Below, one piece after another: positions 38,487 to 38,771 of a DNA stretch of 64,000 nt. The notes beneath the pieces were generated by a model. It did no database searches, was not told where the DNA came from, and saw only the letters and a list, made by a program, of their open reading frames with translations. The position numbers and the translations under genes were made by a program. The stretch lies in contig JAFYJD010000009.1 of the NCBI GenBank assembly GCA_017538255.1, forward strand, positions 13,428-77,427, in the 5' to 3' direction. This DNA is from Clostridia bacterium (GTDB lineage Bacteria; Bacillota; Clostridia; Christensenellales; CAG-138). Position 1 is the stretch's first letter, and each line of letters begins with the position of its first letter.

Positions 38487-38771
38487 ATGGAACTTGCAAT
38501 CGGAATCATTCTCGGCTGCTGCGCACTCGGCGCCGGCATCGCAATGATCGCCGGTATCGGCCCCGGTATCGGTGAAGGTCAGGCTGTTGCAAAGGCTTGC
38601 GAAGCCATCGGCCGTCAGCCCGAAGCAAAGAGCGAGGTAACTTCCACAATGATTATGGGCTGCGCCATCGCGGAAACCACGGGTATCTACGCGCTCGTCG
38701 TTGCGATACTGCTCATCTTCGTTGCGCCGAACATCTTCGTAAACGTGCTCAAGACCGCGCTCGGCAAATAA
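38487..38771 (+). CDS. atpE: F0F1 ATP synthase subunit c
   Basis: [20 protein letters not shown]...RQPEA...[21 protein letters not shown] hairpin proteolipid. AGGAGG RBS. Confidence 0.95.

Follow-up and report, generated by a model that had tools for sequence, protein, structure and literature searches.

We have analyzed a stretch of 64,000 nucleotides (hereafter the window) from Clostridia bacterium (Christensenellales, CAG-138; assembly GCA_017538255.1, contig JAFYJD010000009.1, positions 13,428 to 77,427 of the forward strand), and found in it an F1Fo ATP synthase whose c subunit is very probably of the Na+-binding type. The subunit, encoded by atpE (38487..38771, + strand), aligns without gaps over its ion-binding motif with the solved Na+-binding rings and has all their ligand positions filled. 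From the sequence, we consider it likely that it forms a homomeric Na+-binding c-ring in an otherwise standard F1Fo, and that this enzyme shares a Na+ circuit with a probable oxaloacetate decarboxylase (OAD) encoded in the same window. An earlier note on this DNA, made from the letters alone, had proposed Na+ coupling after aligning the motif by eye. The formal alignment agrees with it on the register, but published work moves the weight from one residue of the proposed signature to others.

The c subunit and the register of its motif

The atpE product is a protein of 94 amino acids (aa), preceded by an AGGAGG ribosome-binding site (38471..38476, 10 nt 5' of the ATG), that is identified as an Fo c subunit by the models PF00137 (ATP-synt_C; 69.6 bits, cutoff 24) and TIGR01260 (62.9 bits, cutoff 43.95) as well as by alignment with entries of the PDB. 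It is a two-helix hairpin with a glycine run GxGxGxGxG over residues 23–31 (G23, G25, G27, G29 and G31), a loop R43-Q44-P45 that is invariant in one of our MAFFT alignments (A1), and a helix-2 carboxylate, E63, that in the same alignment falls in one column with E65, E62, E56 and D61 of the solved rings. Scripted numbering of the translation places the motif at E30 (codon 38574..38576), I61, A62, E63-T64-T65 (38673..38681), G66, I67 and Y68 (38688..38690). This confirms the reading frame of the earlier note and its numbering of E30, E63-T64-T65 and Y68, and the strings that it gave for the two helices (residues 23–34 and 60–71) match the translation exactly. No other c gene is present in the operon, with this single 94-aa frame lying between the end of atpB (38423) and the start of atpF (38821). 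An identical protein is already in the database (MBR4434837.1, 'MAG: ATP synthase F0 subunit C [Clostridia bacterium]'), and the metagenomic contig that carries it shows the same gene order. Besides, the subunit has a C-terminal tail of 12–14 aa (residues 81–94, 38727–38768, + strand) beyond the ends of the Ilyobacter tartaricus and Fusobacterium nucleatum subunits; the c subunits of relatives are of similar length (92–95 aa).

The register was tested by phmmer against all PDB chains and by two MAFFT alignments (A1 and A2). The four best PDB matches were all Na+-type rings, namely 4bem_J (c1 of Acetobacterium woodii), 3zk1 (F. nucleatum), 4bem_A (A. woodii c2/3) and 1yce (I. tartaricus). All four align without gaps over the motif, F. 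nucleatum with E=1.2e-27, an offset of +2 and 60% identity, A. woodii c2/3 with E=1.6e-27, an offset of -1 and 61% identity, and I. tartaricus with E=2e-25, an offset of +2 over the motif and 54% identity. In these alignments E30 stands in the column of E32 of F. nucleatum, Q32 of I. tartaricus and Q29 of A. woodii c2/3. The column of E63 holds E65 in the first two and E62 in the third, that of T64 holds S66 and T63, that of T65 holds T67 and T64, and that of Y68 holds Y70 and Y67. Both MAFFT alignments reproduce these columns for all motif residues, and the ligand positions of the Na+ rings are all filled in atpE (E30 for 32, T64 for 66, T65 for 67 and Y68 for 70). What had been read by eye, i.e., Glu at the Q32 position, the conserved Glu, Thr for Ser66, a further Thr and Tyr at the right spacing, is upheld in this way, with the motif unshifted and ungapped when aligned with the Na+ rings and with Bacillus. 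That Thr can take the place of Ser66 is confirmed by the c2/3 subunit of A. woodii, which is Na+-coupled and has T63 there.

The H+-type rings look different. We aligned those of Bacillus PS3 (1wu0), Bacillus pseudofirmus OF4 (2x2v), Mycobacterium smegmatis (7jg5) and Spirulina (2wie), whose sequences were taken from PDB entries or confirmed with them, together with a c sequence of Escherichia coli. In the aligned H+ rings, position 30 is N, V, D or I, position 64 is Ala, and position 65 is L, V, A or I; in the PS3 and OF4 subunits the residues are N or V at 30, A at 64, L or V at 65 and I at 68. The Tyr of position 68 is kept in the H+ ring of Spirulina, whereas the Bacillus rings have Ile. 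The claim that H+-type Firmicute subunits are without the E-(S/T)-T...Y combination holds for the two Bacillus proteins tested. On the other hand, the c subunit of Thermotoga maritima (an exact database entry, ATPL_THEMA, AAD36682.1) aligns its GIGEG and AETTGIY in the columns of atpE (alignment A2), and so has the same E/E-T-T/Y set. Hydrolysis of ATP by the T. maritima enzyme depends strictly on Na+ (Km 1.2 mM; Kuhns et al., 2020; PMC7414866), Na+ protects from dicyclohexylcarbodiimide, and ATP drives the uptake of 22Na+ (PMC7414866).

The 2.2 Å structure of the F. nucleatum ring gives as Na+ ligands E32, the backbone carbonyl of V63, E65, S66 and one water; T67 and the carbonyl of A64 hold the coordinating water, and Y70 and S66 hydrogen-bond E65 (PMC3692424). 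By analogy, this 60%-identical, ungapped crystal structure fixes the predicted geometry of the site in atpE. The ion would lie between two neighbouring c hairpins, coordinated by a carboxyl oxygen of E63, an oxygen of E30, the hydroxyl of T64, the carbonyl of I61 of the neighbouring subunit and one water, which would be held by T65 and the carbonyl of A62. E63 would be locked by hydrogen bonds from Y68 and T64, and E30 would be protonated throughout, acting like the Gln of I. tartaricus. Solely from the identical glycine motif we infer a ring of about 11 subunits (c11), which at physiological Na+ concentrations is predicted to bind and translocate Na+, one ion per subunit being carried past R202 of subunit a.

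The second carboxylate had been counted in the earlier note as part of the Na+ signature, and this is not borne out. In energetic terms the second Glu, which is constitutively protonated, behaves like Gln or Asn (Schulz et al., 2013; PMC3692424), and the two-carboxylate motif is found also in H+ enzymes such as those of Mycobacterium tuberculosis and Streptococcus pneumoniae (PMC3692424). Moreover, the N-type c17 ring of Burkholderia pseudomallei (E30, E61, T62, M63 and Y66) was predicted to be Na+-coupled and was measured to be H+-selective (PMC5376962). For these reasons the residues that discriminate Na+ are T64, T65 and Y68, and not the second carboxylate; atpE has T65 where the B. pseudomallei ring has Met. 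The Na+ motif of the literature is Q...E-S/T (PMC4320612).

The atp operon and its relatives

The c gene belongs to a complete operon of nine genes in the order atpIBEFHAGDC, as recognized with Pfam, all of them on the + strand. It starts with atpI (ATP synthase protein I, 166 aa, 37051..37551; PF03899, 27.1 bits against a cutoff of 25.1) and atpB (Fo a subunit, 291 aa, 37548..38423; PF00119, E=1.5e-37). After atpE follow atpF (b subunit, 175 aa, 38821..39348; PF00430, E=2e-22), atpH (delta or OSCP, 176 aa, 39332..39862; PF00213, E=8.4e-36), atpA (alpha, 500 aa, 39859..41361; PF00006, PF00306 and PF02874), atpG (gamma, 310 aa, 41382..42314; PF00231, E=7.3e-74), atpD (beta, 473 aa, 42330..43751; PF00006 and PF02874) and atpC (epsilon, 87 aa, 43781..44044; only PF02823 found). 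The residue R202 of atpB (SFRHYGN) aligns with the conserved stator Arg of Bacillus PS3 subunit a (6n2d). Just 5' of atpI, a sigma-70-like promoter candidate (TTGTAA-17-TATAAT with TG, 37005..37033, + strand) is a match to the consensus only, and our promoter scan found such sites to be no more frequent in the region than in shuffled sequence.

Two subunits of the operon deserve a remark. The epsilon subunit is the beta-sandwich domain alone, without the helical domain at the C terminus that serves other bacteria as an inhibitor of ATP hydrolysis. A frameshift is not the cause, because the next gene begins 76 bp on and lies on the opposite strand; among relatives, the length of epsilon is 83–91 aa in 56 of 61 and 133–134 aa in the other 5. 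The gamma subunit, with 310 aa, is longer than in 69 relatives (265–283 aa) and carries charged insertions, one of ~27 aa (…NASIEMFSNRGKDQKRSNKEDAAPKAEHELEDGGY…) and a second of ~10 aa, in the regions ~123–133 and 193–235, that among the relatives compared are confined to this lineage.

Two other types of enzyme were considered for this operon and rejected. In the case of an N-type ATPase, the presence of delta (atpH) argues against it, the gene order is that of the F-type rather than atpDCQRBEFAG, and the N-type models scored far below their cutoffs (TIGR03322, 59.6 against 130.85; TIGR03306, 67.2 against 302.1). In the case of an F/V hybrid ring of the A. woodii type, there is a single c gene with no double-hairpin c1 beside it.

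We scanned one genome per species for close relatives, which were found in at least 485 genomes, and inspected the best 80 by label. They are metagenome-assembled genomes from the gut or faeces of ruminants and other hosts, with the labels Acutalibacteraceae, Oscillospiraceae, Ruminococcus, Aristaeellaceae and Christensenellales, in addition to the cultured Pseudoruminococcus massiliensis (Marseille-P3876), whose c subunit is 82% identical and has E/E-S-T/Y. All the 120 closest homologues (83–100% identity) have Glu at position 30 and E-T-T-G-(I/L)-Y, and the 81 related genome loci that we compared (gut and rumen Oscillospirales and Christensenellales) have without exception E...E-(T/S)-T-G-(I/L/V)-Y, a conservation indicating that the motif is not due to chance. 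The order of the atp genes is also the same in all relatives with all the markers (60/60). In a library of representatives at 50% identity (searched with HMMER), 50 of 77 single-hairpin matches were E/ETT/Y and 8 were Q/ETT/Y, a rough picture that yields no global motif frequency since the list is headed by multi-hairpin fusions and fragments.

In the related gut and rumen radiation, a short epsilon and a c subunit with an extended C terminus are the usual companions of the motif. A tentative generalization, to which we would give somewhat less than an even chance, is that the motif is fixed across this large and mostly uncultured radiation, where Na+ would be the default of bioenergetics and the enzyme a distinct regulatory subtype of Na+-F1Fo, free of epsilon inhibition. 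Two of the homologues (P0005 and P0095), 88–92% identical and having the Na+ motif in full, carry the name 'F-type H+-transporting ATPase subunit c' from the Joint Genome Institute (JGI), a generic orthology label that contradicts the motif.

The multi-hairpin c fusions that top the matches of the 50%-identity library (P0121, P0122, P0125, P0146 and P0247) are diverse. P0121 has 5 hairpins with the ion-binding Glu only in the first and Gln in the others, P0122 has 4 hairpins and one Glu, and P0125 and P0247 have 13 and 15 hairpins, respectively, with Glu in all. They may represent extreme rotor subunits of the F/V-hybrid type, or else gene-calling artefacts at tandem genes.

The decarboxylase and the coupling ion

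The earlier note had matched the Na+ coupling of the ATP synthase to a Na+-pumping decarboxylase encoded about 9 kb downstream. The decarboxylase is real and the distance correct when taken from the end of the atp operon (8,886 bp), while from the c gene it is 14,159 bp. The cluster consists of four genes, all on the + strand. The first codes for an OadG-like gamma subunit (125 aa, 52930..53307; PF04277, 48.4 bits against a cutoff of 27) that with TIGR01195 scores 35.4, just under the cutoff of 36.05. The second is a stand-alone biotin carboxyl carrier with an EAMKME motif (123 aa, 53383..53754; PF00364, E=5e-20), which scores well against the model of the methylmalonyl-CoA decarboxylase gamma subunit, yet under its cutoff. 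They are followed by oadB (beta, 395 aa, 53786..54973; PF03977, E=2.8e-159; TIGR01109, 499.6 against a cutoff of 190.6) and oadA (carboxyltransferase alpha, 483 aa, without a fused biotin domain, 55025..56476; PF00682 and PF02436). A strong hairpin with a stem of 10–12 bp followed by TGTTTTT (56494..56521, + strand) is a candidate terminator closing the cluster.

The beta subunit aligns with that of Salmonella (PDB 6iva, E=1.3e-121), and the Salmonella residues E40, D203, Y229, R304, N311, N373, G377, S382, R389, N412 and S419 are all identical in oadB, where E40, D203, R304, S382 and N412 correspond to E49, D167, the R268-equivalent, S346 and the N376-equivalent. In Salmonella OadB the Na+ sites are D203, S382 and N412, and E40, R304 and N311 are essential (PMC7274780). 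The alpha subunit scores above the cutoff of NF008985, 'oxaloacetate decarboxylase subunit alpha' (742.5 against 718), and is of the HMGL/PYC_OADA type. This points to oxaloacetate or pyruvate chemistry and not to methylmalonyl-CoA, glutaconyl-CoA or malonate as the probable substrate, although the pyruvate carboxylase subunit B domain model scores 732 as well. Overall, the predicted Na+-pumping decarboxylase is complete and looks functional.

In the circuit that we propose, the decarboxylase would export Na+, and the F1Fo would either spend the sodium-motive force on ATP synthesis or, with ample ATP from fermentation, build that force by ATP hydrolysis. OAD exports 2 Na+ per decarboxylation (PMC7274780), which against the 11/3 (~3.7) Na+ per ATP of the inferred c11 ring would yield ~0.55 ATP per oxaloacetate. 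A circuit of OAD and Na+-F1Fo has been inferred in the gut clostridial Ca. Epulopiscium (PMC10756260). The pyruvate, phosphate dikinase (PPDK) of the window (29464–32106, - strand; TIGR01828, 1412 bits) hints, together with OAD, at a route from phosphoenolpyruvate (PEP) to oxaloacetate and pyruvate; neither PEP carboxykinase nor citrate lyase is visible in the window.

The pump is present, as the earlier note had it, and looks intact, but its link with the ATP synthase would be physiological and not operonic. The genes between the two clusters (DUF3783 on the - strand, PduL on the +, FeoB and FeoA on the -, VanW and a lipoprotein on the +) are divided over the two strands, which rules out a single transcription unit for atp and oad. 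The lipoprotein, predicted from a frame of 513 aa directly 5' of the oad cluster (51203–52744, + strand), has a TEAPATEAPATEAP linker repeat and gave no Pfam or NCBIfam match.

Several points weigh against a Na+-coupled enzyme in a common circuit with the decarboxylase. The coupling in this organism and its close relatives is a prediction from sequence. The c-rings are all intrinsically H+-selective, with Na+ coupling set by the Na+/H+ ratio of the environment and depending on a large physiological excess of Na+ over H+ (PMC3692424), and prediction from sequence has failed once, for the N-ATPase of B. pseudomallei (PMC5376962). The ~9 kb of unrelated genes that separate atp and oad mean that their proximity may be coincidental, and conservation of this neighbourhood lies outside the 10-kb flanks of the related loci: OadA, OadB, OadG and the biotin carrier were found in none of the 81, in flanks that reach only 10 kb where oadG lies 14.2 kb from the c gene. 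Finally, the analysis covers a 64-kb window, and the source of oxaloacetate and any Rnf, V-ATPase or antiporters would have to be sought elsewhere in the genome.

The alternative that survives best concerns only the direction of operation and is compatible with Na+ specificity. In a fermenter, the F1Fo could work mainly by hydrolyzing ATP, as a Na+ export pump, more than as a synthase fed by the decarboxylase. We regard this as a serious possibility, though not the favoured one. The look of a strict anaerobic fermenter (NrdD, PPDK, SpoIID and a cohesin protein), the epsilon without its C-terminal domain and the separate transcription of the atp and oad clusters would all suit it, whereas the fermenters F. 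nucleatum and T. maritima synthesize ATP from a sodium-motive force made by a decarboxylase or by Rnf (PMC3692424, PMC7414866), and an intact OAD pump would supply such a force here.

A second alternative is a ring that carries Na+ or H+ depending on pH and Na+ level, as is reported for the A1Ao of Methanosarcina acetivorans, whose site is discussed as having two glutamates, one of them constitutively protonated (PMC3692424). We consider it improbable, as in F. nucleatum, where the two-carboxylate site is the same, the enzyme has no ATP-driven H+ uptake according to the text of the paper (PMC3692424), and that of T. maritima depends strictly on Na+ with its low-millimolar Km (PMC7414866). Least probable of all, and in our opinion very unlikely, is that the enzyme is H+-coupled in vivo despite the motif, because of second-shell residues or an acidic niche low in Na+: the intrinsic H+ selectivity of c-rings (PMC3692424), the failed prediction for B. 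pseudomallei (PMC5376962) and the 'H+-transporting' names of near homologues, though a generic orthology label, speak for it, but in atpE the residue that would hold the water is Thr and not Met, the complete motif has up to now gone with Na+ coupling in each case (I. tartaricus, F. nucleatum, A. woodii and T. maritima), the gut and the rumen are Na+-rich habitats, and the window also encodes a predicted Na+ pump. A Na+-coupled F1Fo, as inferred in the earlier note, is the reading that the register of the motif, the residue match with T. maritima, the differences from the H+ rings and the intact decarboxylase support.

The window has 54% G+C. In addition to PPDK it encodes NrdD, SpoIID, a sigma factor of the sporulation type and a protein with cohesin domains, a gene content to be expected of a fibre-associated anaerobe among the Clostridia. 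The anaerobic ribonucleotide reductase NrdD (810 aa, 1452–3884, - strand) has a glutaredoxin/thioredoxin-like C-terminal domain (~723–792). The cohesin protein, of 1296 aa (5340–9230, + strand), is scaffoldin-like with two cohesin-domain matches and suggests a cellulosome- or amylosome-type surface complex. Another predicted lipoprotein (369 aa, 56629–57738, - strand) is made almost wholly of YD/Rhs-like YEYD(x)GN(x)TK… repeats.

Significance and comparison with known systems

Earlier publications already describe the motif, how it works and that it occurs in Ruminococcus-like bacteria; throughout the clade the motif is ubiquitous, and no new mechanism is revealed here. Ruminococcus albus and Eubacterium siraeum come directly after F. 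nucleatum in Figure S1 of Schulz et al. (2013; PMC3692424), a species list that is the sole trace we found, as a literature search pairing Ruminococc* with 'Na+-binding motif' gave nothing. What the analysis adds is that the coupling ion of the ATP synthase of an uncultured gut member of the Clostridia can be assigned from sequence with good confidence, that the generic 'H+-transporting' label on near-identical database entries can be corrected, and that a simple Na+ circuit of decarboxylase pump and Na+-F1Fo is indicated. Metabolic models of fermenters in the gut and rumen would have to change their predictions of energy yield and of sensitivity to Na+ ionophores (monensin). If true for the whole radiation, sodium and not proton bioenergetics would be the default in a major fraction of gut Clostridia.

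Among the known systems, the c11 ring of F. nucleatum (3ZK1/3ZK2) is alike in its GxGxGxGxG run, in the second Glu of helix 1 and in E65, T67 and Y70, equivalent to E63, T65 and Y68, and its host, too, is anaerobic and pumps Na+ with a biotin-containing decarboxylase. It differs in having Ser66 where atpE has Thr64, and its decarboxylase is of the glutaconyl-CoA type, in contrast to the oxaloacetate type predicted here; the c tail of 12–14 aa and the truncated epsilon belong to the present system. T. maritima has the identical E/E-T-T/Y signature in register, and is also a fermenter, but its subunit is 49% identical overall, its Na+ pump is Rnf, and it is a thermophile of another phylum. The c2/3 subunit of A. 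woodii (4BEM) shares E-T-T-G-I-Y in helix 2 and 61% identity; it differs in the Gln of helix 1 and in forming part of a hybrid ring that includes the double-hairpin c1, whereas there is one c gene here. In the same way, the c11 ring of I. tartaricus and Propionigenium modestum (1YCE) has the columns of the archetypal Na+ site (Q32, E65, S66, T67 and Y70), with Gln32 in place of Glu and Ser66 in place of Thr. The N-ATPase ring of B. pseudomallei is alike in the two-carboxylate site, the Thr after the Glu and the Tyr one turn on, but it has Met at the water-ligand position, is H+-selective and comes from an N-type operon without delta, where the operon described here is a classical F-type. As for the pump, the OAD of Salmonella and Klebsiella (6IVA/6IWW; PMC7274780) has the same Na+-site and essential residues in OadB, with OadG and OadA also present in both. 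In those enzymes the biotin domain is the C-terminal part of alpha, and here it is a separate protein of 123 aa, in a gene order (gamma, biotin carrier, beta and alpha) that is unlike theirs.

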